From positions 1-42,809 of the forward strand of contig PFUW01000040.1 in the NCBI GenBank assembly GCA_002790315.1: DNA of 42,809 nucleotides. The letters run 5' to 3'. Both the position numbers and the translations under genes were made by a program. The stretch comes from Candidatus Huberarchaeum crystalense. Lineage in GTDB: Archaea > Huberarchaeota > Huberarchaeia > Huberarchaeales > Huberarchaeaceae. The notes beneath the pieces were generated by a model. That model was not told where the DNA came from and did not search any database. It worked only from the letters and a program-made list of their open reading frames with translations. Of the stretch, positions 2,820 to 42,809 are shown piece after piece. Position 1 is the first letter of the stretch; each line of letters starts with the position of its first letter.

Positions 2820-3715
2820 AGACTTTTTCTTCTGTTTTATCATCTTTTGTTGTTAAAGTTTTCTCGGGCGCGCTAACATCCTCATCTTCAACAATTTCAG
2901 TTGGTGATATATAACTTTCACTAGCAACTGCAAATACAGGTTCCCATTTATTTACCACAACATCTACGCGATCAAACTGCTCGTTGTATGTTGCTTTTCC
3001 TTCAAAATAAAATTCCCTTCCAAGTAAGTCTTTTTGCTTCAAAATTTCTTCTGCCCTTTCTCCAAAGAGAGTTATTCTAACACTGCCTGTTCCATCATCT
3101 ATAATTAAATTTAATATTGCCCTGTTTACTGCATTAAAAGTGCCTTCAGCGACTTTTTTGCCTGTTTCTGGGTCTGCAATATAGTATGTTGGATCAAATT
3201 TTTGGATTACTGTTGCCTTGATTCGCACATACCCTTCTTTAATTATTCGTATTGGAATTATAGGTGTGCTTGAAAATGATTTTATGTTGTTGATTGTAGT
3301 GTTTTCATCTATTTCGATTTTTGTTGTGGTTCCAAAATGGAGTTCAATGTCGCTCCTGTTATTTTCGCGCGCATATGCATTGGATATTCTCAAAACATCA
3401 CCTTCTTTAATTTGCTCTAATACTTGCGTTAGTTGTTCGTTCCACAAAACCNNNNNNNNCAAAGATACGCACAACTTTGCAAACAAGGTTCACATTACTC
3501 ATTTTTTGTATAATATCACTTATTTTCATTGGCTTAAATGATATTGGTTTTTTTTCAAGTTTAACACCCAAATCAGCGGCAACAATTTGAGCCGCGCCTT
3601 CTTCAGATATTAAATTTTCAAAAAAAGCCTGCTTTCGCCTAATTAATTCCATTATTTCAGTTTCTTCCTTTTTGCTCGCAGATGCTATTTCTTTAACAAT
3701 CTCTTCTGAAATCAT
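2812..3715 (-). CDS. rpa: Replication protein A-like OB-fold ssDNA-binding protein (frame broken at N gap 3452-3459)
   Basis: N-terminal LISEEGAAQIVA..LGV and KISDI; OB-fold motifs VLWNE, GDVLRISNAY, IDDGTGSVRITLFGERA. Confidence 0.8.
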
Positions 3716-3785
3716 ATATTATTTATAAAAATATATTTATTTTCTTTAATCTCTTTAAGATTTTAGCTTTTTTATAATTATATCT

Positions 3786-4433
3786 TCAAAAATCGTCAAT
3801 ATTAACAATATTTTTTTCCCAAGCATCTTCAATAATGCGCGGGCATGCAGTATTTATCCAACACTCAATTTGTAAAAAGTTTGGTTCTTCTTGTGGAAAA
3901 ATCGAATCTCCGAGAAACAATATTGCTTCTTTTCCTTTTTGCTCTAACTTTTTTTTAATTTGAAGTGCGGTTTTCAAATTTTCTTGGCCTGGTTTTGTGC
4001 TTACAAGTATTCCATATGTTGTTGCTTGTTTGGCTAGTTCGCGCCCAATAATTTTTTTTTGCAAATATTTGTCGCGCTCTTCTTTTGAAATTTGCACAAC
4101 ATTATTAAGAACATAATCAATCACAAATACAGGTTTATTTGTGGCATATGCAACAGCAAGCGGATGAAACATACCTGAACCAAAATAAACAAACGCATCA
4201 ATCTTTTTCTCAATTTTTTTTGCATTTTTTATATTGCATCCTAGTACTTGTCCGCCTATTAAAACTTTGAATTTGCGCGCACTTAATTGTTTCTCAAGTT
4301 TAGGCAATATATGTAGATGTTGAATTGTTGTTATTAGACCCACTTTTTTATATTTTTTTATTTTTTTTATTGATTCGCTGATCAGTTTGTGGAGTTTGAT
4401 GTCGCTTTTTGCAGAAATAAAAATTCTATTCAT
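3786..4433 (-). CDS. dph2: Diphthamide synthesis protein Dph2, C-terminal part
   Basis: TTIQH, GQVLGC, GSGMFH, STKPGQ, NTACPRI: two of the three Fe-S cysteines. Confidence 0.88.
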   Translation of the reverse strand: MNRIFISAKSDIKLHKLISESIKKIKKYKKVGLITTIQHLHILPKLEKQLSARKFKVLIGGQVLGCNIKNAKKIEKKIDAFVYFGSGMFHPLAVAYATNKPVFVIDYVLNNVVQISKEERDKYLQKKIIGRELAKQATTYGILVSTKPGQENLKTALQIKKKLEQKGKEAILFLGDSIFPQEEPNFLQIECWINTACPRIIEDAWEKNIVNIDDF

Positions 4434-4714
4434 TTTACTCCTTGTTGACCCATTTTCAAAGTTTTATTGTTGTGACCAAACTGAATAAACAGATCAATTT
4501 GTTCTTCAATTTTTTGCGGCAAAACAGGAACATCGCACGCGCCAAAGCAACTGCCATACCAAATAATTATTGTTGCATTTGTTTTTGCTTCTATTTTTTT
4601 TACTGTGTTTATTGCTTGCATTTTTAGGCCGTCAGGAAATTGCAGAAGAACAATTTTTGCTTTTGATTTTTTAATTTCAGCAATAATTTTGTATAATTCT
4701 AATTTGTAAGCCAT
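4430..4714 (-). CDS. dph2: Diphthamide synthesis protein Dph2, N-terminal part
   Basis: LLQFPDGLK, SCFGACD, IQFGH; ATGA overlap with the downstream half. Confidence 0.88.
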   Translation of the reverse strand: MAYKLELYKIIAEIKKSKAKIVLLQFPDGLKMQAINTVKKIEAKTNATIIIWYGSCFGACDVPVLPQKIEEQIDLFIQFGHNNKTLKMGQQGVK

Positions 4715-4717
4715 ATT

Positions 4718-5101
4718 TTAATTGTTTTTGGACCATTTTGTTAAGGCAAAATAAGTTTCAACAAGTTTCAAGATTGCTATAATACTAATAAATACTATGA
4801 TTGTCTTCGAAACTTCATTTAACAAACACCAAACAAAGATACCTATAATTAAAATAAAAACAATTGCTTGTATTTTAATATAAAGGTTTTTATTTATATC
4901 AGTTAAACCATATAATTTGATTTTTTTGTTGTTTTTGTTCACATTATTATAACTATTATTTTTTCTAAAAATACTGTTTTGAAATTTTGTTTCAAGATTG
5001 TATTTTAATTTTCTGGTTTTTTTTTTGATTTTATTATTTACATTTTCATTTAATTTTCTGGTTTTNNNNNNNNAAGATTTTGTTGTAATATATATAGTCA
5101 T
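4718..5101 (-). CDS. Hypothetical membrane protein
   Basis: Basic N-terminus and two hydrophobic C-terminal helices; N gap near the 5' end. Confidence 0.5.
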   Translation of the reverse strand: MTIYITTKSXXXKTRKLNENVNNKIKKKTRKLKYNLETKFQNSIFRKNNSYNNVNKNNKKIKLYGLTDINKNLYIKIQAIVFILIIGIFVWCLLNEVSKTIIVFISIIAILKLVETYFALTKWSKNN

Positions 5102-5107
5102 TATAAT

Positions 5108-5920
5108 TTAATTAGTAAAATTCCTAATAATTTTAGCCACAATTTCAAATGAATTAGAGTTTGAAAAATCTTGCAGAGCTTCCATCATACTTATTGCTTG
5201 ATTTTTATTATCATAAACTGTAAAAGTTTCGTTTGTTTTAATTGTTTTGTCAAACTCATCAAAAAAGTCAGCATAAATCTGTTTTCCTTGCACAATCTGT
5301 TGAATTTTATCATTTTTCGCAACTGCTTTTTTATAATTTTTTAGCAAAACTTCTTTTGGCTTTAAATCGCTTTCTTGCAAATCTTCAATTTTTACACAAT
5401 CTTCAATTTTTACATCCCCGCTTGCTGTTCTTTGAAGAGATAGCATTTGCGCGCCAACACCCAAAAATTCGCCAACATCATAACATAGTTTTCGAATATA
5501 AGTTCCTGCTTCGCATTTTACTCGAAAACCAGCGACATTATTTTTAAAATCCAAAAATTCAAAAAAATATATTTTTCTCTTCCGTAGCACTCTTTTTACT
5601 GCTGATTTAACTGGCGGAATTTGCTCTATTTCTCCTGTGAACTTTTCAAAACCTGTTTTAATTTGCTCTTCTGTAACTTGTTTGTGGAATTTTATTTTGC
5701 CAACATATTCCTTGTCTTGCCTACTTATGAATTGCAAAACAGGGGTTATTTTTCCAACAGCAATTATTAACACACCATCTACATTTGCATCAAGCGTACC
5801 GTGGTATCCACCTGTTTTTACTCCAAGTTTTTGTTTGACTTTTTCGAGTGTTTGAGATGATGTTAAGCCAACAGGTTTATACAAAAAAATAACGCCTTTA
5901 ACCATAAGTTTTTCATACAT
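5108..5920 (-). CDS. cbf5: Pseudouridine synthase Cbf5/TruB family
   Basis: KPVGLTS, HGTLD (catalytic Asp), KEYV, QIPPVKSAVKR, CEAGTYIRKLC, PUA-like tail. Confidence 0.9.
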   Translation of the reverse strand: MYEKLMVKGVIFLYKPVGLTSSQTLEKVKQKLGVKTGGYHGTLDANVDGVLIIAVGKITPVLQFISRQDKEYVGKIKFHKQVTEEQIKTGFEKFTGEIEQIPPVKSAVKRVLRKRKIYFFEFLDFKNNVAGFRVKCEAGTYIRKLCYDVGEFLGVGAQMLSLQRTASGDVKIEDCVKIEDLQESDLKPKEVLLKNYKKAVAKNDKIQQIVQGKQIYADFFDEFDKTIKTNETFTVYDNKNQAISMMEALQDFSNSNSFEIVAKIIRNFTN

Positions 5921-6072: not shown

Positions 6073-7254
6073 ATGACACTAATTAAAGAAGGAAATGTAG
6101 TTATTGATGTTAGTGATGCTGATTATGGAAAAATATTTGTTCCTTCAAAAAAAATGAAAGTATTCTATAACCCAAGAATGAAGCATAATCGTGACATTTC
6201 TGTTTTATTTTATGATTTTTGGGCTAAAGCAGTCAAAAAGAGCGAAAATTTGGTCTTTTTTGATGGAATGGCAGGGTCAGGCGTCAAAGGACTTAGAGTT
6301 TTAGCAGAAACAGGTATAAAAAATGTTATATTTAATGATCTAAATCCAAAATCTATTGAAAATATAAAATCTAACTTAAAAATTAATAACTTACCCAAAA
6401 ATATTCATTATAATCTCTACAATCTCTCTTTCCAGCGACTTTTGGCTGAAAAGCAAGCAGATATTGTTGATCTTGATCCTTTTGGAACTCCTGTTTTGTT
6501 TTTGGACTTTGTTTTGGCAAATGCTCGAAAAGGTGAGCTTATTAGTATTACAGCGACTGATACTGCTGTATTGTGCGGAGCTTCTCAACAAAATTCACAA
6601 AAATGCGAGAGAATTTATTTTTCAACACCATCAAAAAACGAATCTATGAAAGAAACAGGCTTGCGCATTCTTTTGGGTTATATTGCAAGAACAGCAGCAA
6701 AATATGGTCTTTTTCCACTGTTTTTGCTTTCATATAGCAAAGACCATTATATGCGCGCATTTTTTAGCATAGAAAAGTACAAACAAGGAGATTTGGATAG
6801 AAAAATAGGCCATATTTCGTTTTGCGCAGCTTGTAATAAAAGAAAAGTCAATTTTGAGCAGTGTTTTAGCTATGTTTGCGAATGTGGTGCTAATTTAACA
6901 ATTGCCGGGCCATTATGGCTCGGAAATTTCATAGATATGGGGTTTTACAAAGAAATAGATGGTTTTGTAAAAAAACAAAATAAAAAAATTAAATTCTCAG
7001 AAAAAACAAAAAATACTACCCTAAATACCCAACAACAATTGCGCGCAGTGCAAAAATTTGATAATCTCTTAAAATTTATGAAACCATTAGCAGCAGAGCA
7101 AAATTTTCTGCCGTGGCATTATAATTTACATAATTATCCTAACTATGCGCACAAAAAAATAGATCAAGCCCTGCAGGAAATTAAAGGAGTAAGAAGTCAT
7201 TTTGATCCTTTGGCAGTTAAAACAAATAAGACAAACTTGTTTGAAAAATCATAA
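6073..7254 (+). CDS. trm1: tRNA (guanine26-N2)-dimethyltransferase
   Basis: VFYNP, NRDISV, DGMAGSGVKGLR, DLDPFG, TATD, GLRILLG, CxxC/CxC, GPLWLG. Confidence 0.93.
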   Translation: MTLIKEGNVVIDVSDADYGKIFVPSKKMKVFYNPRMKHNRDISVLFYDFWAKAVKKSENLVFFDGMAGSGVKGLRVLAETGIKNVIFNDLNPKSIENIKSNLKINNLPKNIHYNLYNLSFQRLLAEKQADIVDLDPFGTPVLFLDFVLANARKGELISITATDTAVLCGASQQNSQKCERIYFSTPSKNESMKETGLRILLGYIARTAAKYGLFPLFLLSYSKDHYMRAFFSIEKYKQGDLDRKIGHISFCAACNKRKVNFEQCFSYVCECGANLTIAGPLWLGNFIDMGFYKEIDGFVKKQNKKIKFSEKTKNTTLNTQQQLRAVQKFDNLLKFMKPLAAEQNFLPWHYNLHNYPNYAHKKIDQALQEIKGVRSHFDPLAVKTNKTNLFEKS

Positions 7255-7319
7255 AAAGCGAAGATGTTTTAANNNNNNNNNCAAAAATATAATGGAAAAT
7301 TCCACTAATTTTAAAAATA

Positions 7320-7353
7320 GTATAAAATTTACCTAAAATGTAGAATTTTCCAC
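7320..7353 (-). repeat. 34-bp bipartite site, copy 1 (inverted relative to the others)
   Basis: Reverse complement gtggaaaattctac-atttta-ggtaaattttatac; 28/34 identical to 8942-8975. Confidence 0.7.
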
Positions 7354-7411
7354 AAATTAAATTATAATTTATTAGGGTTTTTTACTTTTTTAAATTTAAT
7401 TTTTTAATTTT

Positions 7412-8185
7412 TTATTCTTTGAATTTATTTTTTAATTTTTCATTCACTTTGTTAAAAATATCTGCATCGATTATTGGTTTGTGGTTCCCTTGTGTTTCTT
7501 TTCCTGCATATTTAACAATTCCAATATAGGTTTTGTTTATTAGAAGTTTTTTTATTCCTGATGTTGTTATTCTATGTTTTTTGGCAAGTTGTGTTAATGA
7601 AATAGGAGTTTCTAAAAATTCATTAAAGATTGTTCTCACCTCTTCTGCTCCTTTTTCGTCAATTATCAAATTTTTATTGATCAAACTATACCCTCGCGGA
7701 GCTTTTGTTATAAACCCACCTTCTTTTGCTTTTCTTTCCATGCCAAATTTGGTTCTGTCTCCAATTATATTTCTTTCAAATTCTGCAAATGCAGAAATTA
7801 CTTGAAACATCAACTTGCCTGATGCGCTGGATGTCTCAATTTTGTCTTGCAGGGAAATAAAGTCAACTCCCCACTCTTTTAGCTTATCTATTGTTAAAAT
7901 CAAATCTTTCAAATTTCTTGAGAATCTGTCAAGTTTGTAAACAAAAATTGCTGAAAATTTCTTGCTCTCAGCATCTTTTAACAATTGAATCATTTCATGC
8001 CGTTTTAAATCTTTTGCTGATTTTCCTTTATCACAGTAAATTTTAAAAATATCATAACCCAACACCTTTGCATAATTAACCAATGAATCTTGCTGCGCAT
8101 CCAAAGAAAAACCGTGCTGTGCTTGGTCTTGCGTTGAAACTCTTGTGTAAATTGCAGCAAAGGGTTTATTTTTGTTTGTTTCCAT
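7412..8185 (-). CDS. Serine recombinase (resolvase catalytic domain plus short recombinase domain)
   Basis: AIYTRVST (catalytic Ser), SLDAQ, D.GKSA, VYKLDRFSRN, SAFAEFER, APRGY, NKTYIG, H.PIID...F. Confidence 0.93.
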   Translation of the reverse strand: METNKNKPFAAIYTRVSTQDQAQHGFSLDAQQDSLVNYAKVLGYDIFKIYCDKGKSAKDLKRHEMIQLLKDAESKKFSAIFVYKLDRFSRNLKDLILTIDKLKEWGVDFISLQDKIETSSASGKLMFQVISAFAEFERNIIGDRTKFGMERKAKEGGFITKAPRGYSLINKNLIIDEKGAEEVRTIFNEFLETPISLTQLAKKHRITTSGIKKLLINKTYIGIVKYAGKETQGNHKPIIDADIFNKVNEKLKNKFKE

Positions 8186-8222
8186 AATTTTTATAAACTT
8201 AGGGTAAAATCTGCGTAGTTTA

Positions 8223-8250
8223 TGTTTACTTAGGGTTCCCTAAGTATACA
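8223..8250. other. 28-bp dyad upstream of the recombinase, candidate crossover or operator site
   Basis: TGTt-TACTTAGGG-TT-CCCTAAGTA-tACA: inverted arms around a 2-bp centre. Confidence 0.6.
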
Positions 8251-8266
8251 AGCAAAAAAATATAGT

Positions 8267-8300
8267 GTAGAATTTTCCACGATTTTGGTAAAGTTTACAC
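8267..8300 (+). repeat. 34-bp bipartite site, copy 2
   Basis: gtagaattttccac-gatttt-ggtaaagtttacac; ends 4 bp before ATG 8305. Confidence 0.7.
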
Positions 8301-8304
8301 AATT

Positions 8305-8685
8305 ATGACAAATTATAATATGTTGTATATTGAGATGCACAAAATTTGCACAAACATACAAACNNNNNNNNNATATGTTGGGGATACAACAAATAGTAAG
8401 TATTCTGTTGAAGACTCCCAATCAAAAAAAAGAGCGACGCAAATACAGATTTGTTTAGGAAAGGTTTGTATAAGACATAAAGATATTGTGGAACCTGTTA
8501 TAGGTGCTAACACAATATATGGGTTGGGTTTATTTAATATAGGTTTTGTGTGTATTAGCCTAAGCATATTTAATTTACTTACTTTTCGATTTGGAACAGA
8601 ACCAAACACTTTTCTTATTTTCTCTGTTGTTTCCTTTATGCTTCTTTTTATTATAGGTGTTTTATTTAAGGGGTTTGAAGGTTAA
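8305..8685 (+). CDS. Hypothetical membrane protein (N gap at 8364-8372, start uncertain)
   Basis: Two hydrophobic C-terminal helices; TAATG overlap with the next ORF. Confidence 0.55.
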   Translation: MTNYNMLYIEMHKICTNIQXXXXYVGDTTNSKYSVEDSQSKKRATQIQICLGKVCIRHKDIVEPVIGANTIYGLGLFNIGFVCISLSIFNLLTFRFGTEPNTFLIFSVVSFMLLFIIGVLFKGFEG

Positions 8686-8936
8686 TGAAGAAAAAAATAC
8701 AAAACACACACTACGAACTTAGAGATTTTGTTATTAGAGGAAAAACAATTTTTAGGGTATTGTTATTTCTTATAGCTAGTACCTTATTTACACTTTCTAT
8801 TATTTCGTATATTCAGGCACGTTTTTCATTATTTTTTACAAATGAAGGAATAGAAGGAATATTTTTATTTTTTGGGTTATTAGGGTTTGTTTTATTTATT
8901 TGCGGTGGGATCTTAATGGGAAAATTTAAAAATTGA
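8685..8936 (+). CDS. Hypothetical two-helix membrane protein
   Basis: 83 aa with two hydrophobic segments; coupled to the upstream ORF. Confidence 0.6.
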   Translation: MKKKIQNTHYELRDFVIRGKTIFRVLLFLIASTLFTLSIISYIQARFSLFFTNEGIEGIFLFFGLLGFVLFICGGILMGKFKN

Positions 8937-8941
8937 TGTTA

Positions 8942-8975
8942 GTGTAAAATTCTATATTTTTGGTAAAATTTCTGC
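8942..8975 (+). repeat. 34-bp bipartite site, copy 3
   Basis: gtgtaaaattctat-attttt-ggtaaaatttctgc; starts 5 bp after the stop at 8936. Confidence 0.7.
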
Positions 8976-9010
8976 GTTTTGCTCAAATATAATTATGCTT
9001 TTTAATTGTT

Positions 9011-9044
9011 GCATAATTTTCTACAAATAAGGTAAATTTTCTAC
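9011..9044 (+). repeat. 34-bp bipartite site, copy 4
   Basis: gcataattttctac-aaataa-ggtaaattttctac. Confidence 0.6.
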
Positions 9045-9357
9045 AAAAAGATATTATTTTTATAGAAAATCATAGCCAAGGCAAAATGATTATATTTTTA
9101 GGTGTAGAATTTTTAAACAGCTTTATTGCTTGGATCTAAATTAGTTGGTTTTTTTTCTAAAATATTGTGTATTGTATTTGAATCTATATTAGGTGCTTTT
9201 TTTTCTAAATTTTCTAAAATATCACCTGGTTTTAAAAATTGAGAGTAAACTAAATTTATTTCTGCATCCTTGTCATCGCTTTTCTTTATTATCTTTTGAT
9301 TATTGTCTATTGCTTTGTAATCTTCCGCTTTTTTTATTTCTGTATTTAACTTTTCTT

Positions 9358-9597
9358 TTAATTAAGCCCAAACCTTTGTTTTTTCTTTTCAATCTGGGCC
9401 ACGACACTTTCCACATCTTTTTTTAAAATTGTCTTTTTTTTGGCTTGTTTTGCGATAAAAACAACAAAATCAGCAATTCCCGAACCAAAATCCTGAATTG
9501 CCAACGCAAACATCTTTGCTCCTTTTTTTGAGACTCTTTTGGCTCCTTTTTCGCGCAAAATTCGTTCTGCTTGACTTGACAAGATTATTTCAGGCAT
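9358..9597 (-). CDS. Archaeal histone (HMf-like)
   Basis: ERILREKGAKRVS...IA...AKQAKKKTILKKDV histone-fold pattern. Confidence 0.85.
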   Translation of the reverse strand: MPEIILSSQAERILREKGAKRVSKKGAKMFALAIQDFGSGIADFVVFIAKQAKKKTILKKDVESVVAQIEKKKQRFGLN

Positions 9598-10199
9598 TAG
9601 AAGAAATCCTGCGACGCAAGTGATTGTGAATTTGTGTCTTTATTTTTATTGAGTATTATTTTTTTCTGAAAATCAGATATAGCTCGTTTTGCTATGTCTA
9701 TATTCTTTATGCCTGCGCACACTATTCTCCCTGTTTTAAAAATAAGAATAGCTGCTGAATATTCTTTGTTTTTTTCTCTATAAATTATTCCAGGAAACAC
9801 TTCTGGATTGTACTCTATATTGTCCAACATGGCTGCTAATTCGAACATACGAGGAATTTTTTTGATATAAGAAGTCACTACAAGGTTCCTTATTTTTAAT
9901 TCCTTTTTTTGTTTGACTTTAAAACCCAATTTATTTAATATTTTTATCAATCTAGTTAACGCTGAATTTACTGCTCTCATTGATTTTGCTCCAGTGCATA
10001 CGATTTTGCCTGTCTTAAATATAATAAAAGTTATTTTTTTATCTATACTGTCATGAAAAAAAACACCGGGAAACTTTTCTTTGTTGTATTTAAAGCCCTT
10101 TTTCTCGAACTTGCCTAATGCGTTAACATCTATAGGATTATTTAATTGCTCTGTCACTACAATGTTTTGGACATTGATATCTTCATTTATTAACCCCAT
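9597..10199 (-). CDS. tbp: TATA-box binding protein
   Basis: Two repeats: NIVV...FPG...IFKTGKIVCTGAKS and NLVV...YNPEVFPG...IFKTGRIVCAG. Confidence 0.95.
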   Translation of the reverse strand: MGLINEDINVQNIVVTEQLNNPIDVNALGKFEKKGFKYNKEKFPGVFFHDSIDKKITFIIFKTGKIVCTGAKSMRAVNSALTRLIKILNKLGFKVKQKKELKIRNLVVTSYIKKIPRMFELAAMLDNIEYNPEVFPGIIYREKNKEYSAAILIFKTGRIVCAGIKNIDIAKRAISDFQKKIILNKNKDTNSQSLASQDFF

Positions 10200-10363
10200 A
10201 ATATATTTATAAATAATAGATGTAAATATTTTTTAGAAAATAATTACAAAACAAGGCTAAGTAATTGCTCCCAAACATTGCAATTAAAATTATTTTTTAT
10301 TTGCGCGCTATTGAAATACAATTATGTTATTTGTTTTTAAAAATGATCTAATTGTTTGGTTTG

Positions 10364-11098
10364 TTATTTTGTGTTTGCTTGCTCTGTTGTTTCTGTTTGT
10401 TGAATATTAGATTTTTCTTCAATAACTACTTCTTGTTTCTGCTTTTCTTTTGCTCTTATTTCTCCAGGCATAACTACCCCAGGAGGAATTAGTTTGACTG
10501 TTATTCCTACTGTGCCCATTTTAGTTTGAGCGTCTACTTTTACTGTTTTTACTCCAAGTTTTCTCAAATTACCAGTATATATTCTTACACCTTTGTAATA
10601 TTTTCTTCTTCCTGCCAATGCGCTTCCGCCAATCTTTCCAGCTAATATAATCTCAATTCCGCGCGCACCTGCACTCATTGCATCTTTCATCAAATTATTC
10701 ATCAAATTTCTGAAATTTTTTCTTTCTTCAATAGAACGTCTAAGAATATTTGCGATCGAAACAGATGATAGGGCGCGAGTTTCAACTGGCTGAATATCTA
10801 CAACTATATTTTGAACATTAAACTTTTTTGTAATGTTTGCTGTTATTGTTTTTAATGTTTCTCCACCACCACCAATGAGCAATCCTGGGTTAGGTGTTAG
10901 GATTGTAATTTTTGTTTTTGTAGGAATTTGTTGAATAGTTATATTATCTATAAGAGATGTTTTTAATTGCTTTTGAATGTATTTATTGATCAGTACAATT
11001 TGTTTTGATGTTTCTAAAAACTCTTTTTTGCTTGACATATTATTTTTTTGATCCTTTAGCAGAAGTTGCAGATGTGCTAACTTTTGGCGAGTTATCAT
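10364..11098 (-). CDS. rps3: 30S ribosomal protein S3 (uS3); true start may be ATG 11038
   Basis: KH domain PGLLIGGGG; AMSAGARGIEIILAGKI; TKMGTVGITVKL. Confidence 0.92.
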   Translation of the reverse strand: MITRQKLAHLQLLLKDQKNNMSSKKEFLETSKQIVLINKYIQKQLKTSLIDNITIQQIPTKTKITILTPNPGLLIGGGGETLKTITANITKKFNVQNIVVDIQPVETRALSSVSIANILRRSIEERKNFRNLMNNLMKDAMSAGARGIEIILAGKIGGSALAGRRKYYKGVRIYTGNLRKLGVKTVKVDAQTKMGTVGITVKLIPPGVVMPGEIRAKEKQKQEVVIEEKSNIQQTETTEQANTK

Positions 11099-11830: not shown

Positions 11831-11922
11831 ATTTAAATTAAATATAACTTATTATACTTATTTTGTTAAAAAAAACAAAATTATTTAAATTAAATATAAC
11901 ATATTATACTTATTTTGTTAAA
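11831..11922. repeat. 40-bp direct repeat (period 52) including the trmB stop codon
   Basis: atttaaattaaatataac(t/a)tattatacttattttgttaaa at 11831 and 11883. Confidence 0.8.
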
Positions 11923-12731
11923 GGGATTGCTTCTTTGGACAAAAGTCCGAAAATCTCACCAAGAAACGCAGCAATTATAGGCGATTCAATAAAAATGCAA
12001 GCCTCTTCATTTTCCTTTGTTGCAGGATTATCATTCAAATACAACAATATTTTAGTTTTATCAAAAATCCAAAAACGAACTAGTTGCTTAGGATAAACTT
12101 TAACTTCGCATTCTTTCAAATTAGGATTAAGTGCGCAGGGGTTTGTGTAGGTTAAAAATTTTACAGATATCTCTTTAGATATAGCAGAAGATAACAAAGC
12201 AGATATATCATTTTTAGCAGACATTATATCTATAGCACTATTATAGGAAACCAAAATTTCCTTTTTTGTTCCTGTAATTGCTGTTTTTAAAAATGAAAGT
12301 ATATTACTTCTTCCAAAAATTTCATAGCTAGTTAAATTTTGCTTTGTAGTGCGTTGTTCAAATAATTGTTTTAATTTACTAATAAGTCCCCCGCTTTTTT
12401 CTTGATTTTTTATAGTTTGAACTTTAGAATTGTGTATTGCATCCATTTTTTCAATAACAGGAGCTATCATTGTTTCTGGATCTTTTGCAATATATTTAAC
12501 AGGGCGACCTTTTTTCTTTAAAATAAATCCGCGCATAAATAGTCCTTCAAGAGTATCATATGTTCTTGCTTTGGGAATTTTTGTATACACTGATATTTCA
12601 GCAGGAGTAAGTGTGCCGTGCTGAAGTAAAACATTAAGCGCCTTTGCTTCATATGTGTTCAAAAAAAAGGTTGAGCGTAATTGTCTCACTAGTTCTACAT
12701 CAATATCTGCAAAATCTATTGCCTTTGCCAT
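11910..12731 (-). CDS. TrmB-family transcriptional regulator
   Basis: LNTYEAK, EIS..TKIPKARTYDTL..L..RGF, GRPVKY.A.DP; C-terminal WIFDK domain. Confidence 0.88.
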   Translation of the reverse strand: MAKAIDFADIDVELVRQLRSTFFLNTYEAKALNVLLQHGTLTPAEISVYTKIPKARTYDTLEGLFMRGFILKKKGRPVKYIAKDPETMIAPVIEKMDAIHNSKVQTIKNQEKSGGLISKLKQLFEQRTTKQNLTSYEIFGRSNILSFLKTAITGTKKEILVSYNSAIDIMSAKNDISALLSSAISKEISVKFLTYTNPCALNPNLKECEVKVYPKQLVRFWIFDKTKILLYLNDNPATKENEEACIFIESPIIAAFLGEIFGLLSKEAIPLTK

Positions 12732-35895: not shown

Positions 35896-38800
35896 TTATT
35901 TTTTCTGGTTTTTTATTTTTGGTTTTTTATACTCTTTGTAATTCTTATAGATATAGATATAATACCCAACAATAACAGCTAAAATCAGCAAAACCCACCA
36001 ATACCAGCAAGCAATAAATCTAAGATTACAGCCAAGGCCAAAAAGACAGCAACTATGTTGCCCTTGATTTGTTTTGTTTGATAGAGATGTTATAATGTGA
36101 TCCTCTTTTGTTGCGTTGCATTTTCCGCAGTCTGTCTCGCAGGTCAAACAGGTTTCGTTTCCTTCGCATTTCTCATCTCTACAAACAGGAATTTTTGAGT
36201 AATCTTCTAGGCTGTTTTTGTAATTTTCTTTGCAAGTGCTATCGCAAACTTTGTCTCCGCAAGTACAATTTGAGCAATTTTTGACATTGATTATTGTAGG
36301 AGTGTTATATAAATTGTGGCGGCTAAAAGTTAGTAAATGTGTTCCTATTGTTGTGTTGAAACAAAAAATTTGATTGGGTTGAATTTTGTGTGTTGTTTGG
36401 TTATCAATATTTAATGTAAAGTTTGTCATAAACGCGTCGCAACATCCTCCACAGTTTGCGTTTTCGTTTGATGGAATGATTAGGCAGATTTTTTGGTTTG
36501 CGCAGATAGGGGTTGTGAACTTGTAAAATATTCTATGGCAGTGCTGATATTTGCTTGTTTTTGGTGGAATCAAATAAAATAAGCTATAAATTTCCTTGTT
36601 TTCACAATCCCAATTGCAATAAATCTTGTTCTCAAACCTGAGTGAAAGGTCTCCATATTTTATTACTTTTAGTTTAAGGTTTATTATTTTTGATTCATTT
36701 TGTGATAAGTCAAAAGAAGTATAAGTGTGTGCTGGCGCGCCATTATCTAATTGTGCGTCTGTGGATATTAACTCAAATCCATATGCTCCAACAAACACAA
36801 TAACATTTTTGGCAATATCATTTCCTTTATTTGTAATATTAATTTGATATTCAACTTCTTTTTTATATTCTATTTTATCGCTGATTTTTTTGGTGTCCAA
36901 CACAAGGTGTGGCGCACTAACATTCATTATTGTTGAGTTTCTTGTGTTGAAAATCGTGTCGTCAGTTATAAAAAGAGTGGCATTGATTGTGTCATTGATT
37001 GCGTGCGGCCTGCCAATAAAAGTTATATTTAATGTTTCGTTTGGAACAATTTTTGAAATTATTGCGCTCCACTCATTTTCTACATTGCTTATATTGTTGC
37101 TGAATTTTAATGACAAAACATCTACAAAATAAATGCCATTCATAACATAATGCGCAATCACATTGTAAGCAGTTATATTTCCTGTGTTTTTTATTGTTAG
37201 GTTTCCTGTGAAATCCTGGCAAGGATAAACTTTTGATGGAATTGAAATATTTAGAATTTCAAGGACAACAGATTGCATCTTCATTGTATGGTTTGTTAAA
37301 GTGTTAAATTCCTGATAAGGTCCTGATATATAACTTAGATATGTTGCGTTGATGTGGTTTGTTAGGTTCTCTTCTGCGCGCACATATTCTCCTTGCTTAT
37401 ATGTTCCGCTTATGTTTGTGTCTTCATATGTCTCGTTTATGCTCGCGTTTATTGTTATAGTATAGCAAGTGTTGTTTTCTATTGATGAGATCTTCCAAAT
37501 TAGGGTGCGCGTGCGGTTGTTTATTTGGGTAGTTGAATTTGGCGTAGGAGTTGCGTTTAAAAAAGTTGTTCCGTTCGCCAAAATGTCTGTTGTTGTTATA
37601 TTATATGCAACACCTTTTCCTGCATTGCAAATTGAAATATTATAAGTTATATTTTGGTTGGGGTAACTTTCGCTTATACTTGTTTTTGTGATAATTATGT
37701 TAGGAAGTTCAACATTTGTTGAAATTGTATTTGTGTGGTTGTATTGGTGACCGTTTGATGGCGCGCTCCATCCTGACAAATTTGCACTGATTTGTACAGT
37801 ATCGTCTTGGTTTAAAAAGGTGTTATTAGAATAAGTGTTGTTGATAAACGCCAAAACCGAGATGTTTATACAGCTTCCATTTGTCAGATTGTCAAACATA
37901 TAAAGAAGCATCTGCGAGCCATCAGATAAGTTTATTTGAGAGTTTGAAATAGGGGTTGTGGTCGCGCTCCAATTTATGAAAACAACGCCAGACAGAAGCG
38001 TGGCATTGAATGAAATATTATATGTTGTTGAATTTCCATAATTGCAGAGATAAAAGGTGTAATTATTGATTGCTCCACTAGGCAAGCTATTATTTTGCTG
38101 TGTGATTGACAACAATAAATTCGGCTCGACAACAAGCAAGTCAGCGCTCGCGTTTGTTGTGTAATTTCGGCTATTTTGCGAGTTCCAGCTCATTGAAACT
38201 GCATCTGCTTTGTTCAACAAATAATCACCTATTATAACATCGCTGTTATTATCATATTTTGTCTTAACGCGTGCGCTTATTGTTATAATAATTGTTTCGC
38301 TAACATTAACATTTGAAAAGAAATATGTTAAATTTCTTCTGTCGNNNNNNNNNNAAGCAATTGAGTTTCCTTCATTTTTAATTGTGATTGTGTAATTGAT
38401 GGGAAAACCCGGCGCTTGCTGTTGTGGATTTACTGTTTTTGAAATTGTGATATTGGGCTCCAAAATTACTATACTCGCATTTGCGTTTATTTTAAAGGTT
38501 TCATTTGTTGAATTATAATAAGTTATGTTTGCAAAATTGTAAAGTATGCTTCCTTTGTGTAGGTTTGATGCATTGTTTACAAACCCTTCAAAATTTAGAT
38601 TTAAAATCCCTATACGAACATCACTGAAATTGCAATAAACCGTGTTGTTGTTTATTATCTTGCAATTTGACACACAACTCGCAGCAGTGCTATTTAAATA
38701 AGTAAAGGTGCAATTTTCGATGGCTGTTATATTAAAATTAGTTGAATTGTCAAACAAAGTTAGATTTTTTACACCACCTCTCGTTGTGTTTGTAATTATA

Positions 38801-41800
38801 GTCCATTCGAGTGGTTGGCCAAGCGAAGCATTTATTTGGTTTGTGTATTTGTAAAATGTTGGAGGAGCAATGATAATTCCTCTTTGCACGAGTGAGTAAT
38901 TAGAATTTGCGTCAGTTGAATATTCGCGCGCAGTTCCATTATACTCATCTGCTTTTGTTTGATTTGTCGAATAATATATTATATTTAACTGGTTTGCTCC
39001 AATATTATCGCCAGCAACAATAAATTTATTATCACGGTAGGTTTCATTAACTTTAAAGGCAAGCCAAAAATTTACTGTTTCATTTACATTTATTTTTGAA
39101 ATATTTTGAATTATTATTGTAGTATTTACAAAAAGAGGTATAATCTCAGAAGAGTTATAAATAAGTCCATCTGGAATATAATCAATTATTGTAATATTCC
39201 ACGCAGTTGAAGAGCCGTTGTTTTTCAATGAAATTGTATAATTTATTATATCATCGATGCTGACAGGTGTGTCAGATGTGCGTGTTTTGTTTGCGACAAT
39301 GTTTGGCTCTAAGACTGTAAATGTTGTTGAAGTCTCATTTACTGTTTCTGCTCCTTGGTTTGTAGAATTGAAAAATTCATTTGCTTCAGGGCCAGATGAG
39401 TAGTAAGAAGTATTTATCCTATTTTTAAGTTGCGTGCTGTTTGTATTGGTGCTGATATTTTCAACAAATGTAGAGTGGTTCATAATTATTGTAATTGGCG
39501 CAGAAATGTTACCCAAACTCGATTTACACTGCCATAAAAGAGATTCTGTTGTCTCATTCAGAACAGAACAGTTGAGTGTTGAATCATTGCAGAAGTAATT
39601 GCTGTTTGTTGTGTTTGTATATTTGCAAGTCGCGCTTCCATTAATATAGTGCAATCTGCTCTCTAAATAGTCATTAATTGTTATATTTTCAATTGTGCCG
39701 CATTTTATTTCTGTTGTAATTATATAATCCTGTTTTTCTCCGATACTAAGATTTGAATATTTTCTTTCTTTGATTATAAACGGGGCATTGGCGCCGATTA
39801 TAGTTGAGTTAGTGGTCTGATTGATTGTTGTGGCATAATTGCAATTAGCGCAGCTTCCATTTACAAAAGTCGTAGAATTATACGCTACGGGACAGGTAGG
39901 TTTTGCTTTTACTTGCGCGCTCCAAGTTTTACCTGCCAAAAGATCTATTGTCCAATTTATTGTTCTGTTGATTTCATTTATTTCTCCAGATACATTTGTC
40001 CAAAGATCGCTAAATCCTTCTGCTAAACTATGCAAAATCGTCAGATTATAAGCAGGCCCTCCATTGTTTGTTACTTTGATTGTCCATGTTCGATTTTCGC
40101 CAAAATTAACTGTCTGGGATGTGTTGGCAACTTCTAAATTTATAGATGGGTTTGTATAATTAATATTAGTGGTTTTTGCATCTGAAAATTCTTCTGAACA
40201 AGAATCAAAATAAGTTAAATTTACACTAACATTTCCGCTCGCTGCTGCGATGCATTGTTCTGATGAATTGAATGCGCGCACAGACACTATGATTTGCATA
40301 TTTGTATTATTTGTTTGGCTGCTTCCATTCCAAAGTATATGTTGGTTATTTATTTGCTTAAAATCGACTTGCGTTGAATTTCCAACTACCCACCACAAGT
40401 TTGCATATCTTAAATCATTTCCAAGTGTTGTGTTAATATTCCAATTGTGCGCTGGCAGAACATTGGTGTTTATGTTGAAAGTTATGTTTTTTTCTTCGCA
40501 AGGTCCGATTTCTGGCGCGCTTATGCTTGCAATTCTCATAATTGGTTGTGTGTCTAAATCAGATGTTGTTGAAGCGCATCCAATTGTGCAATTGCAATTG
40601 CCAGAATAACAGCCCCAACAAACAGTGGCATTGTTTTTTGTAGTTAAATTACAGCCTGTTATGTTAGCAGTAATGTTTATGCTTATTTGACTGTGGTTTG
40701 CTAATGTGTTAAGCGCGCACCAAAATAAATCATCAGATGTTCCTGACCCTCCAGTTGTTCCGTTCATAGATTCGCAGTTTGTGCTGTCAAAAAGTGTGTT
40801 AATTGGCAGAAGGTCTGTAATATTTATGCCGTACGCATCTGCGTTGCCAGTATTTTTTACAGTTATATTCCATATTATTTGAGATTTGTTTTCTTTTGCA
40901 ATCCACAGCGGAGTTTTTGTAATTGAAATCTCAGGGTCTAAAACAACAAATGTTGGCGAGTATTTTTCAAGAGTTGTACCAGTAGAGCCCTCTGCAAACT
41001 GGCAAACAGTTTGATATGTTATTTTTGCTTTTGATTGACTTTGACTTGGCGAACAACAAGAAGTGGCATTGTATTTAAAAAAAGGCTGAACTGTTTCATC
41101 TTTTTTTATTTTATCAATAACAAAAGTGATCGAACCGTCAGGATTATAAGTAATAGGGGAAACCACACTTTCGTTGATCGTCACTTGTGTAACATTAAAT
41201 CCTACAAAAGGTAAATAATTTATTGTAACATTATACAAACTTGTTTCTCCTTTCATTTCTATAGATAGGTTTGATGTGAAATTTGGATCGCTCAGGTTAG
41301 TAATGCAAAGCGTTACAGAATCCATCTCACTAACAGATACTTGAGTTATAGGTGTCTTAATTATTGCATAACTGCTTGCGCTACTGTTTGAACATTCAAC
41401 ATCAAAGCATCCAACTTTAACATCTGCAAAAAGAGACATATTGCTGCATTTGGTAACAGTTGCGTTTGCATTGAATTTCGCCAAGCTTGACGGCTCAATT
41501 TTATCAATTGAAAATGTTGCGTATTTGCTCGTGTTTTCTATCAAAGATATATTAGAACCAATAGGCGCAGACCAATTTGAATATTCCATTCCCTCATCAA
41601 AAGTTATATTTACGATCGCATTGTATGCTGCGCCAGGCCCTAGGTTTTTCACAATAATTTCATAAGTAGCTATATCTTCGCTTACAATATCTGGTTTTCT
41701 GTCAAAAGTTATCGAAAGCAATGGTTTTGTTAGAACAAGAGATTGCGAGGTGCTGACAGAGTGTTCGCAGCCGCATTCTGAGCAATTATTATCTGTTCCT

Positions 41801-42809
41801 TCACTTGTATCATTCAATTTGCAATAACCTGTTTTGCATCCATCATTCCAGTTTATCCAAGAAGCTATAGAATTTGCTGAATTGCATTTTGGAGTTGCAT
41901 TAAGTGTTAAAGTTGAGTCATAAAAAAATGTGTCGTTTCCGTCTGATAGCGCGCTAAGATTATATTTTAAAATGCAATCCCCTGTGCTACAATTAATTTC
42001 AGGATCAGCAATAAAACTTTGCGTGTTATTTATATAAGGTCCATTATCAATCATATATTCATCTGTTTGGGTTGTCTTTCCTTTTAATGTTAAGTTTGAA
42101 CTTCCGGCAGTATAATTCCAATTACTAATATTTACATACCATATAAGGTCGTGCGCTCCGCCGAGTATGTTCCATTCATCGAGATATAAAGATATTGGAA
42201 CTTGGGAACAAGTATCGTGCATCATAGGCATATTTAATTCCATATGTGGATGTGCTTTAAATATTTTTACTTCAAGATTTTTATGCGCGCCATTTCTTTC
42301 ACAAGGCGATTCGTGGCATACATTCCCCCCACTTCCGTCAGTTTCGCTGCGAATTATTGACTCAAAAATATAGCGAGTATAAATATCAAGCACATCCCAC
42401 TTTCCAACAGTTATATTATATGTTGCATTTATTGGGTGCGAAGAGTTAAGAATGCAGCCAGACCTATTTGTAGCATTTTCAGGTAATCCAGATATTACTG
42501 TAAAATTTGTTAAATTCCAATTTGCGCAAACAACATTACCTCCAATATCTGAATAATAATCTGGTTCTTTTGAAAATGAAACATTTATTGTTTGCAGTGA
42601 ACTTGAAACATTAACTTGAACAGCGCAGGTAAATCTAGCTGTTGTGTCGTGATAGTGAAAATTGTTTTTCATAAAGCACTCACTCCAAGTTAGATCTGTG
42701 TAAGACGCAGAGATATTGGTTGTGTAGGCGCTAGCAGTTATATTATAATCATGGCAAGATTCTTGGCGTTGTGGGCTTATTATTTTATTCATTCCAAATC
42801 CGCCAGGGC
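35896..42809 (-). CDS. Giant surface glycoprotein with DUF11/Ig-like repeats and a C-terminal membrane anchor (5' end outside the window)
   Basis: More than 2,298 aa; recurring I.K....G..I.YTI.IKN.G...A.N.TI.D repeats, dense N-x-S/T sequons, Cys-rich CGD..C motif, TM helix and Lys tail; frame open to the window edge. Confidence 0.85.
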   Translation of the reverse strand, partial: PGGFGMNKIISPQRQESCHDYNITASAYTTNISASYTDLTWSECFMKNNFHYHDTTARFTCAVQVNVSSSLQTINVSFSKEPDYYSDIGGNVVCANWNLTNFTVISGLPENATNRSGCILNSSHPINATYNITVGKWDVLDIYTRYIFESIIRSETDGSGGNVCHESPCERNGAHKNLEVKIFKAHPHMELNMPMMHDTCSQVPISLYLDEWNILGGAHDLIWYVNISNWNYTAGSSNLTLKGKTTQTDEYMIDNGPYINNTQSFIADPEINCSTGDCILKYNLSALSDGNDTFFYDSTLTLNATPKCNSANSIASWINWNDGCKTGYCKLNDTSEGTDNNCSECGCEHSVSTSQSLVLTKPLLSITFDRKPDIVSEDIATYEIIVKNLGPGAAYNAIVNITFDEGMEYSNWSAPIGSNISLIENTSKYATFSIDKIEPSSLAKFNANATVTKCSNMSLFADVKVGCFDVECSNSSASSYAIIKTPITQVSVSEMDSVTLCITNLSDPNFTSNLSIEMKGETSLYNVTINYLPFVGFNVTQVTINESVVSPITYNPDGSITFVIDKIKKDETVQPFFKYNATSCCSPSQSQSKAKITYQTVCQFAEGSTGTTLEKYSPTFVVLDPEISITKTPLWIAKENKSQIIWNITVKNTGNADAYGINITDLLPINTLFDSTNCESMNGTTGGSGTSDDLFWCALNTLANHSQISINITANITGCNLTTKNNATVCWGCYSGNCNCTIGCASTTSDLDTQPIMRIASISAPEIGPCEEKNITFNINTNVLPAHNWNINTTLGNDLRYANLWWVVGNSTQVDFKQINNQHILWNGSSQTNNTNMQIIVSVRAFNSSEQCIAAASGNVSVNLTYFDSCSEEFSDAKTTNINYTNPSINLEVANTSQTVNFGENRTWTIKVTNNGGPAYNLTILHSLAEGFSDLWTNVSGEINEINRTINWTIDLLAGKTWSAQVKAKPTCPVAYNSTTFVNGSCANCNYATTINQTTNSTIIGANAPFIIKERKYSNLSIGEKQDYIITTEIKCGTIENITINDYLESRLHYINGSATCKYTNTTNSNYFCNDSTLNCSVLNETTESLLWQCKSSLGNISAPITIIMNHSTFVENISTNTNSTQLKNRINTSYYSSGPEANEFFNSTNQGAETVNETSTTFTVLEPNIVANKTRTSDTPVSIDDIINYTISLKNNGSSTAWNITIIDYIPDGLIYNSSEIIPLFVNTTIIIQNISKINVNETVNFWLAFKVNETYRDNKFIVAGDNIGANQLNIIYYSTNQTKADEYNGTAREYSTDANSNYSLVQRGIIIAPPTFYKYTNQINASLGQPLEWTIITNTTRGGVKNLTLFDNSTNFNITAIENCTFTYLNSTAASCVSNCKIINNNTVYCNFSDVRIGILNLNFEGFVNNASNLHKGSILYNFANITYYNSTNETFKINANASIVILEPNITISKTVNPQQQAPGFPINYTITIKNEGNSIAXXXXDRRNLTYFFSNVNVSETIIITISARVKTKYDNNSDVIIGDYLLNKADAVSMSWNSQNSRNYTTNASADLLVVEPNLLLSITQQNNSLPSGAINNYTFYLCNYGNSTTYNISFNATLLSGVVFINWSATTTPISNSQINLSDGSQMLLYMFDNLTNGSCINISVLAFINNTYSNNTFLNQDDTVQISANLSGWSAPSNGHQYNHTNTISTNVELPNIIITKTSISESYPNQNITYNISICNAGKGVAYNITTTDILANGTTFLNATPTPNSTTQINNRTRTLIWKISSIENNTCYTITINASINETYEDTNISGTYKQGEYVRAEENLTNHINATYLSYISGPYQEFNTLTNHTMKMQSVVLEILNISIPSKVYPCQDFTGNLTIKNTGNITAYNVIAHYVMNGIYFVDVLSLKFSNNISNVENEWSAIISKIVPNETLNITFIGRPHAINDTINATLFITDDTIFNTRNSTIMNVSAPHLVLDTKKISDKIEYKKEVEYQINITNKGNDIAKNVIVFVGAYGFELISTDAQLDNGAPAHTYTSFDLSQNESKIINLKLKVIKYGDLSLRFENKIYCNWDCENKEIYSLFYLIPPKTSKYQHCHRIFYKFTTPICANQKICLIIPSNENANCGGCCDAFMTNFTLNIDNQTTHKIQPNQIFCFNTTIGTHLLTFSRHNLYNTPTIINVKNCSNCTCGDKVCDSTCKENYKNSLEDYSKIPVCRDEKCEGNETCLTCETDCGKCNATKEDHIITSLSNKTNQGQHSCCLFGLGCNLRFIACWYWWVLLILAVIVGYYIYIYKNYKEYKKPKIKNQKK

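Follow-up and report, generated by a model that had tools for sequence, protein, structure and literature searches.

Does the gene for a serine recombinase act on the repeated sites that surround it, or do those sites belong to another protein? This is the question raised by a locus in contig PFUW01000040.1 of the tiny groundwater archaeon Candidatus Huberarchaeum crystalense (assembly GCA_002790315.1), where a recombinase gene, here called rec, lies amid copies of a 34-bp repeat; the stretch analyzed, positions 1 to 42,809, is referred to as the window, and coordinates are those of the window unless another contig is named. An earlier note on this DNA had interpreted the arrangement as an integron-like or invertible platform, with an array of operators as the alternative. 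We found that the layout is real, that recombination was not seen, and that the operator-type alternative fits somewhat better. The reading that we prefer, with rather less than even confidence, is that a dimeric DNA-binding protein distinct from Rec docks at the repeats, which are specific to this lineage, and that the rec module landed among them.

Composite sites at the recombinase locus

Four copies of the 34-bp composite lie at 7320 to 7353 (S1, minus strand, inverted), 8267 to 8300 (S2, plus strand), 8942 to 8975 (S3, plus strand), and 9011 to 9044 (S4, plus strand), exactly where the earlier note had placed them, and its count of 28 identical positions out of 34 between the inverted copies S1 and S3 was reproduced (a repeat search returned this match as 42 nucleotides at 79%). 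Each copy joins an A box and a B box across a spacer, S1 reading B box, spacer, A box and S2 reading A box, spacer, B box. With up to three mismatches allowed, a 14-nucleotide consensus matched the window 23 times against 12.49 matches expected, a count that none of 100 shuffles reached, and 7 of these matches fall within 7292 to 9117. Across the 453-kb assembly, which is 78% complete (the scope of every genome-wide absence reported here), there are four box pairs at the 20-bp offset, every one at the rec locus, and two pairs in total at the remaining offsets from 14 to 44. The earlier note had not noticed the motif elsewhere in the window; this confinement extends to the assembly, where paired boxes occur nowhere else.

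A weight matrix built from the eight boxes is circular, and hence each site was scored with itself left out; the boxes then ranked 1, 1, 8, 11, 16, 25, 74, and 226 of 452,747 assembly positions. Eleven of the next 12 best single boxes genome-wide lie inside open reading frames (ORFs). Upstream of 287 long ORFs, box parts were rare and showed no enrichment (GGTAAA 12 times, TTCCAC 2, and TTCTAC 4), so that a general promoter element was rejected, and the occurrence at ordinary promoters that the earlier note had named as evidence against itself proved not to be the case. The pair and rank statistics, together with this rarity upstream of long ORFs, exclude both chance and a general promoter element: the four 34-bp sites are real and nonrandom.

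The 14-bp A box (consensus GTGGAAWWTTCYAY; GTGGAAWWTTCCAC-like) is self-complementary at 6 to 10 of 14 positions, against the roughly 4 that we estimate from base composition, and the B box consists of GGTAAA, then W, TTT, and a variable half. GGTAAA is invariant in all seven copies, and conservation is uneven among box positions. Because of the self-complementarity and the invariant GGTAAA, we read the A box as a probable dimer site. A and B boxes agree at 8 to 11 of 14 positions as direct repeats, compared with 5 to 9 as inverted repeats, which makes the composite site directional. The A-B spacer is 6 bp, or 9 bp in two further copies, L1 and L2, that are concealed by an assembly gap.

The gap-free locus

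The runs of N at 7273 to 7281 and 8364 to 8372 are assembly gaps; metagenome contigs of this organism (L043, L046/L053, and L047; the nine flanking proteins are all 100% identical) fill them with 260 and 71 bases, respectively, and three metagenome contigs agree on one arrangement over the gap-free locus. The first gap conceals a 39-bp tandem repeat of 3.6 copies, a composite site (L0), and most of a 51-bp unit, repeated 2.3 times, that carries L1 and L2; this left array occupies 7261 to 7305, mostly within the gap, and corresponds to 3204 to 3499 of L043. Both of the single boxes that the earlier note had reported near 7292 and 9104 are present, but the former (7292 to 7305) is the A box of L2, and thus half of a full site, since the gap conceals the remainder of the array. 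Contig depth is doubled over 7282 to 7333 in runs X22 and X24, which fits the 51-bp tandem unit. The full locus comprises seven composite sites and a half site. From left to right, the stop codon of the trm1 gene is followed by the 39-bp repeat, L0, L1 and L2, and S1 (58 bp beyond the rec stop codon); then by the minus-strand rec gene with its promoter, S2 (upstream of the TATA-like box of rec by 14 bp), a 26-amino-acid (aa) ORF with its stop, and a TATA-like box; and finally by orf107, orf83, S3, S4, and a lone A-type box (9104 to 9117, plus strand). L0 to S1 point one way, and S2 to S4 point the opposite way.

That rec and two coupled small membrane ORFs are transcribed divergently, with direct copies of the site flanking the two ORFs and inverted copies beyond rec, had been recognized before; we confirm this layout and find it to be unique to the locus. 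The placement of S2 just 4 bp before the start of the cassette did not survive, being an artifact of the second gap: the ORF that starts there (8305 to 8363, plus strand) is the 26-aa ORF, which ends at a stop codon inside the gap; the membrane gene does not begin there. The true start of the membrane ORF lies ca. 120 bp beyond that of the 26-aa ORF, with a TATA-like box ca. 30 bp upstream, and both the ATG and this box fall in the gap (L043, 4588 to 4620). The visible part of orf107 (107 aa, two transmembrane-like segments) spans 8373 to 8685 on the plus strand, where its stop overlaps the start of orf83 (TAATG; 8685 to 8936, plus strand; 83 aa, two transmembrane-like segments), and S3 does begin 5 bp past the orf83 stop, as claimed. 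No homologue of orf107 except itself was found in 5.8 billion clusters, and orf83 gave no Pfam or NCBIfam match.

A compact recombinase

The rec gene (7412 to 8185, minus strand) is single copy in the assembly and encodes a 257-aa serine recombinase with a catalytic domain (PF00239, E = 2.5e-42) and a recombinase domain (RD; PF07508, E = 3.7e-8, residues 180 to 253). Among structures in the PDB, its closest matches are the catalytic domain of the TP901-1 integrase (2e-31) and the RD of the A118 integrase (2.3e-4, residues 163 to 250), and YxRVSTxxQ and LDRFSR are motifs that it shares with the consensus of 120 homologues. Rec shares these two domains with the large serine recombinases (TP901-1, A118, CcrB/CcrC, and XisF). 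In the latter, the zinc-ribbon/coiled-coil region reads the outer half-site and controls direction. Rec differs in that it ends at residue 257 without such a region (no Pfam match at E <= 0.01), and no attP/attB pair is known for it. The CcrB, CcrC, and XisF models are matched only over the first 239 to 286 of their 465 to 558 positions, and NCBIfam scores are far under the cut-off (e.g., 149.8 versus 900 bits). Given two domains only and these half-length matches, we class Rec as a large-serine-type enzyme that lacks the zinc-ribbon/coiled-coil region.

Homologues number 958 at E <= 0.001, and the best 120 are all 249 to 268 aa long and 71 to 84% identical, the closest of them reaching 79 to 84%. 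Relative to the consensus held by at least 90% of these 120, Rec shows seven aligned differences (E53K, P63H, I82V, S91N, I129V, K223I, and F226Y) and a 3-residue C-terminal extension, and its helix-turn-helix (HTH) stretch is the same as theirs. Judged from this alignment, Rec has not been respecified, its DNA-binding HTH being unchanged. Rec is much like the other mini serine recombinases of DPANN archaea in length (ca. 250 aa), in its two domains, and in its TATA-palindrome-CCCTAAGT promoter, and it is 55 to 84% identical to hundreds of them; it differs in its neighborhood, where the usual neighbors and a catalytically dead paralog were not found, and in the family of repeats that flank it.

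Acquisition of rec together with its operator

The relatives of rec belong to a Woese/Pacearchaeota clade, from which we compared 22 rec loci taken from species genomes and 30 further loci. Rec is 55 to 77% identical to its counterparts at the 22 related loci, whereas the ribosomal proteins of the host are 30 to 39% (S9), 33 to 46% (L13), and 25 to 29% (ribosomal protein S3) identical to those of the same genomes; within the relatives' clade the two kinds of protein diverge similarly (Rec, 59 to 70%; S9, 53 to 79%). In a tree of 39 rows, for which 8 duplicates and 4 rows containing stops or short matches had been removed, host rec fell in a clade of 19 rows (support, 91/97), itself part of a clade of 29 rows (97/88), and was nested within the Woese/Pacearchaeota clade. 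Because rec and the gene for ribosomal protein S3 lie together on a single contig in each of three independent assemblies, a binning error is excluded. These comparisons show that the host acquired rec horizontally from a Woese/Pacearchaeota-like clade.

In those relatives, rec is a fixed, single-copy, syntenic, origin-proximal chromosomal gene. Its neighborhood includes the QTV211 gene upstream at 16 of 22 loci, an HTH gene upstream at 15 of 22, and the S9-L13 genes downstream at 14 of 22; a catalytically dead paralog composed of a Zn-ribbon and an RD is present at 12 of 22; orc1 lies 5 to 15 kb from rec in five of five relative genomes; and rec occurs in 66 of 301 sampled genomes of the relatives' order, in one copy each. 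The rec contig of the host carries none of the QTV211 and HTH genes, S9-L13, or orc1, and the dead RD paralog was not found in the host assembly. As a side observation, the DNA encoding the QT(A/G)V peptide repeat of the relatives' 205- to 211-aa HTH protein is found again, in the form of AAACAGCTGTTT/TGTCCAAACA-type repeats, in the promoter regions both of this HTH gene and of the dead recombinase paralog (L028, 2620 to 2700 and 3052 to 3118; L014, 2691 to 2764, 3092 to 3115, and 5314 to 5337). In one relative (L022, 4770 to 6200), 1.4 kb downstream of rec contains no ORF of 77 aa or more and five AAAGTGAGACTT-centered repeats ca. 100 to 280 bp apart.

Upstream of rec, a TATA box is followed by the palindrome CTTAGGG-N3-CCCTAAG, ca. 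24 nucleotides, CCCTAAGT, a Shine-Dalgarno-like GAGG, and the ATG. In the window this promoter/operator occupies 8197 to 8253 on the minus strand, with CTTGTATA as the TATA-like box and the third CCCTAAGT 31 bp downstream. The TATA-palindrome-CCCTAAGT architecture is found within 170 nucleotides of the start at 18 of the 22 related loci as well as in the host, and similarity to the relatives upstream of rec stops at the TATA box. In the whole assembly CCCTAAGT occurs 3 times, against 7.7 expected, and all three copies are at the rec promoter. Judged from this comparison, the operator arrived together with rec; Rec most likely still binds the inherited CCCTAAGT element, and the purpose of such binding is probably autoregulation. 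The locus shows that a compact recombinase, retained in one DPANN clade in the manner of a housekeeping gene, can be transferred to a very distant DPANN lineage together with its own control element.

Searches for the boxes elsewhere

Neither paired boxes nor the composite pattern were present at the 22 related rec loci or the 30 more (109,688 bases), and the whole genomes of five relatives contained background only (3 matches, versus 3 in a reversed control). Among 401 genomes of the relatives' phylum, a single match with one mismatch was found in one genome and none in the others, and viral contigs held neither the composite pattern nor relatives of rec. When metagenomes were scanned with a degenerate pattern of 30 letters, 17 stretches matched. 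Four of these came from the same organism, and the other 13, which were single matches without a rec homologue, were rejected as coding or chance matches, being either conserved coding sequence or a GC-rich bacterial promoter region. As far as these searches reach, the boxes are not part of the heritage of rec and are lineage specific.

The relatives do have a directional repeat of their own, CCT[AT]AGT[GT][CA]A, which lies upstream of rec on the rec strand at 15 of 22 loci and on the opposite strand once. At L016, L020, L024, L027, L028, and other loci, one to four direct copies of a ca. 25- to 30-bp AACTAAGYTAACCTAAGTGCACAAC-like site were seen 0.2 to 1.7 kb upstream of rec, and these sites are placed between variable small ORFs. 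That the boxes are degenerate CCTAAGT repeats of this kind was considered and rejected, as no convincing likeness was apparent by eye.

A proposed reading: two neighbors rather than one machine

Three observations argue that the boxes are not the target of Rec itself: the loci and genomes searched among relatives with the enzyme lack them, the HTH is unchanged, and a separate, family-wide cis element has been kept. In the reading that we prefer, the locus would hold two neighbors and not one machine, namely, a self-contained rec module of ca. 0.85 kb (rec and its own operator) and an array of boxes that dock a dimeric, sequence-specific protein which is not Rec. The array has four sites upstream of the membrane operon and two and a half downstream of it, pointing in opposite directions, and this could permit looping and tight control of that operon, and with S2 so close to the rec TATA-like box this control may now extend to rec. 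The rec module would have landed inside one A box, leaving a 15-bp direct repeat, and tandem duplication would then have expanded the left array. In several respects the locus resembles the operator arrays of looping repressors and plasmid centromere arrays: it has 14-bp palindromes paired 20 bp apart, clusters of them that flank a small operon and occur at one locus only, and tandem 51-bp units that each carry boxes. It differs from operator arrays, and from plasmid centromere arrays, in that no cognate repressor or partition gene was found and two of the clusters lie in intergenic DNA between 3' ends.

A number of points weigh against this reading. No regulator gene for the boxes was found, and Rec is the only recognizable DNA-binding protein in the island; since the motif is at no other promoter, one would expect the gene of a dedicated regulator to lie close by. 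The nearest candidate is a TrmB-like gene 2.7 kb away (11910 to 12731), which nothing links to the boxes, and an AsnC/Lrp-type binder was set aside because that family was not found in the assembly. It is unusual for operators to lie between convergent 3' ends, as two of the three box clusters do, and the sites at gene boundaries (5 bp past a stop codon and bracketing rec) and the inverted sets have the look of recombination sites or element ends. Repeat arrays beside the enzyme may be considered a family trait, given the directional repeats at 15 of 22 related loci. Binding of CCCTAAGT by Rec is itself an inference, and in relatives the dead paralog, which was not found in the host assembly, could be the CCCTAAGT binder. 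The 15-bp repeat, finally, arises because the A boxes of S1 and S2 are identical on the plus strand, so that an exact direct repeat brackets the rec module; its length equals the maximum of 60 shuffles (relatives have 0 to 13 bp, within the shuffle range), and taken alone it is borderline.

Are the boxes sites of recombination?

A somewhat unlikely alternative, close to what the earlier note proposed, is a recombination platform in which Rec uses the composite sites: S2 with S3 or S4 would excise or capture the membrane cassette, the inverted left set would allow inversion, and rec would itself be a cassette. The motif is exclusive to a recombinase locus, its copies sit at gene boundaries in both orientations, the 15-bp exact repeat brackets rec and its promoter, and the cassette gene orf107 is an ORFan. 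Moreover, the central dinucleotide of the A box is, by our reading, a nonpalindromic AA or TT in six of seven cases and could set polarity, and the directional repeats of relatives lie on the rec strand amid variable small ORFs. Against this, no related rec locus or genome searched has the boxes, the HTH of Rec is conserved, and the CCCTAAGT element has been kept; many of the adjacent sites are "empty." The geometry also fits poorly. Known dimer sites of serine recombinases have spaced inverted arms, whereas the boxes are 14-bp palindromes with abutting 6-bp arms, and A and B are direct repeats.

The locus resembles integrons, among them those described from archaea by Ghaly et al. (2022), in having a recombinase gene divergent from a cassette of small genes bounded by direct repeats. 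The locus differs from them in having a serine and not a tyrosine enzyme, a single cassette with its own TATA-like box, adjacent empty sites, an extra inverted set beyond rec, and sites that do not form hairpins. When folded as single-stranded DNA, only S2 did better than its shuffles (z = -2.67, compared with -1.09 for S1, -0.20 for S3, and +0.88 for S4). With one of four sites folding better than shuffles, attC-like hairpins were rejected and the sites are not regarded as attC-like. No Rfam family was matched in L043 from 2900 to 5900.

Like the invertible switches (Hin/Gin/Cin and Mpi), the locus has inverted copies of a site flanking a serine recombinase segment. It differs from them in that Rec is not of the invertase type (38.5 bits against the Mpi model, with a cut-off of 272; DNA-invertase structures match only catalytic residues 69 to 159), and an inversion here would find no promoter or split gene to switch. 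Two orientations were not seen in the contigs of four runs or in the three metagenome contigs, whose single arrangement is weak evidence against the platform. The earlier note had proposed looking for inversion or excision junctions. This check was run on the assembled contigs of the four runs and gave no supported joint, which argues only weakly against rearrangement because contigs drop rare variants. Contig cover that ends after 8437 in two runs was uninformative, and two joints, one from 8628 to 10020 and the other, of low depth, from 7374 to 10591 (21 letters between; runs X22 and X24), were set aside as unreliable. A contig of run X22 matches from 8184 rightwards, and its 25 left letters match nothing in the assembly or related loci; this loose end and the 7374-10591 joint could come from other organisms.

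A broader form of the platform, in which the boxes are sites of a cassette system analogous to an integron but built on a large-serine-type enzyme without a zinc ribbon, rec is itself a cassette bracketed by identical A boxes, and enzymes of this family have taken the place of XerA in many DPANN lineages and can move between them as a self-contained module, seems to us unlikely.

Dimer resolution and accessory sites

The relation of rec to XerA bears on a third explanation, which we consider quite unlikely: Rec would be a resolvase of chromosome or replicon dimers with its crossover site near its own gene, and the boxes would bind a host protein that shapes the synapse and imposes resolution selectivity, much as sites II and III of res and the accessory sequences of cer do. 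A tyrosine recombinase (PF00589) was not found in the host assembly, and all 14 control genomes have one. In a cross-tabulation made by hand over 301 genomes of the relatives' order, with kinship uncorrected and with metagenome-assembled genomes (MAGs) that are incomplete, a strong Xer-like match (E <= 1e-40) was present in 17 of 66 rec-positive genomes versus 215 of 235 rec-negative genomes; no PF00589 match at all was seen in 25 and 6, respectively. That rec goes with the lack of a strong Xer match makes a serine enzyme doing the job of Xer a testable idea, but since the genomes are related, which inflates the anticorrelation, and the MAGs are incomplete, the pattern is a lead and not a test.

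Consistent with the resolvase explanation, the host genome has one rec-linked CCCTAAGT cluster, S2 lies 22 bp from the rec-promoter palindrome, and the catalytically dead RD paralog of relatives could serve as an accessory protein. For a serine-recombinase crossover site, however, the 3-bp spacer of the palindrome is odd and its arms are too close; most box clusters are 0.8 to 1 kb from the palindrome, and in relatives rec is near orc1 and not the terminus. In the res sites of Tn3/gamma-delta, Sin, and RK2 ParA, several binding subsites adjoin or overlap the control region of the serine recombinase gene. The present locus is similar in its gene-adjacent subsites and in the 34-bp length of its composite, which is that of res site II. 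It differs in having direct-repeat boxes instead of inverted 12-bp arms, clusters spread over 2 kb in both orientations, and an enzyme of another subfamily.

Archaeal serine recombinases are essentially unstudied. In a 2021 review (PMC8371274), they are described as seen in transposons and never fully investigated. A search of full-text literature did not find "serine recombinase" together with Woesearchaeota or, among the papers listed, with Pacearchaeota, Nanoarchaeota, or Nanoarchaeia, and found it with DPANN only in the context of proviruses. For such work the box array offers a short, well-defined substrate that can be synthesized.

Mobile-element remnant, replication origin, and repeat by-products

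It is very unlikely, in our view, that the locus is the remnant of an unsampled plasmid or virus that had captured rec, with the boxes as its iterons, as centromere-like sites, or as sites at which a now-lost protein bound its ends. The island does consist of foreign or ORFan genes amid housekeeping genes, and its inverted arrays at both ends resemble the ends of multisite elements. Its tandem 51-bp units, each carrying palindromic boxes, recall plasmid centromeres of the sopC and parC type. However, no replication, partition, or transposase gene was found in the island, the pattern occurs in 0 viral contigs and, in the metagenome scan, in this organism only, viral contigs yielded no relatives of rec, and the boxes are unlike the repeats at the host orc1 locus.

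The last point bears also on a replication origin, which was rejected: orc1 is on another contig with unrelated repeats, GC skew shows no turn at 7 to 9 kb, and the locus differs from archaeal origins, in which inverted origin recognition box (ORB) elements surround an AT-rich unwinding element beside orc1/cdc6. The sole Cdc6_C match of the assembly is on that other contig (C39, L055). There, the orc1/cdc6 gene is flanked by a very AT-rich, ca. 340-bp array of 13- and 23-bp repeats and by three 38-nucleotide repeats (L055, 250 to 590 and 1779 to 1954), and the repeats around this gene are probably the replication origin of the host.

That the boxes are functionless by-products of a high rate of intergenic duplication is extremely improbable: the assembly does contain 166 tandem-repeat rows (TRF) in 453 kb, with periods of 12 to 120 bp and many of them 100% identical, its gaps abut such repeats, and a recent 51-bp duplication accounts for two of the seven sites, but six diverged copies in three places keep the palindromic A box and the invariant GGTAAA while other positions vary, duplication alone yields no opposite orientations, and tandem duplication accounts for part of the left array and not for the dispersed, diverged copies.

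Flanking genes and other features of the window

On the left, the locus is anchored by trm1, which encodes a tRNA N2,N2-dimethylguanosine methyltransferase (6073 to 7254, plus strand; Pfam TRM, 2.8e-73) and was not found in five recombinase-bearing relatives. The right anchor is an archaeal histone gene identified by Pfam (9358 to 9597, minus strand), which is followed by TBP (9597 to 10199). Directly past the histone gene, at 9113 to 9337 on the minus strand, lies an open frame of ca. 74 aa without an ATG, GTG, or TTG start, whose stop codon is overlapped by the lone A-type box. It contains a 32-nucleotide direct repeat (9130 to 9161 and 9178 to 9209) that encodes LEKK(A/P)xN(I/L)D(S/P). The frame may extend the histone gene in a decayed or unconventional form. 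Elsewhere in the window, the N gaps (at 3452, 5066, 6034, 7273, 8364, 11161, and other positions) abut short intergenic tandem repeats, so that the true intergenic regions are longer and more repetitive than they look in the window. At its far end, 35896 to 42792 on the minus strand is taken up by one ORF of ca. 2,300 aa that continues past the window end.

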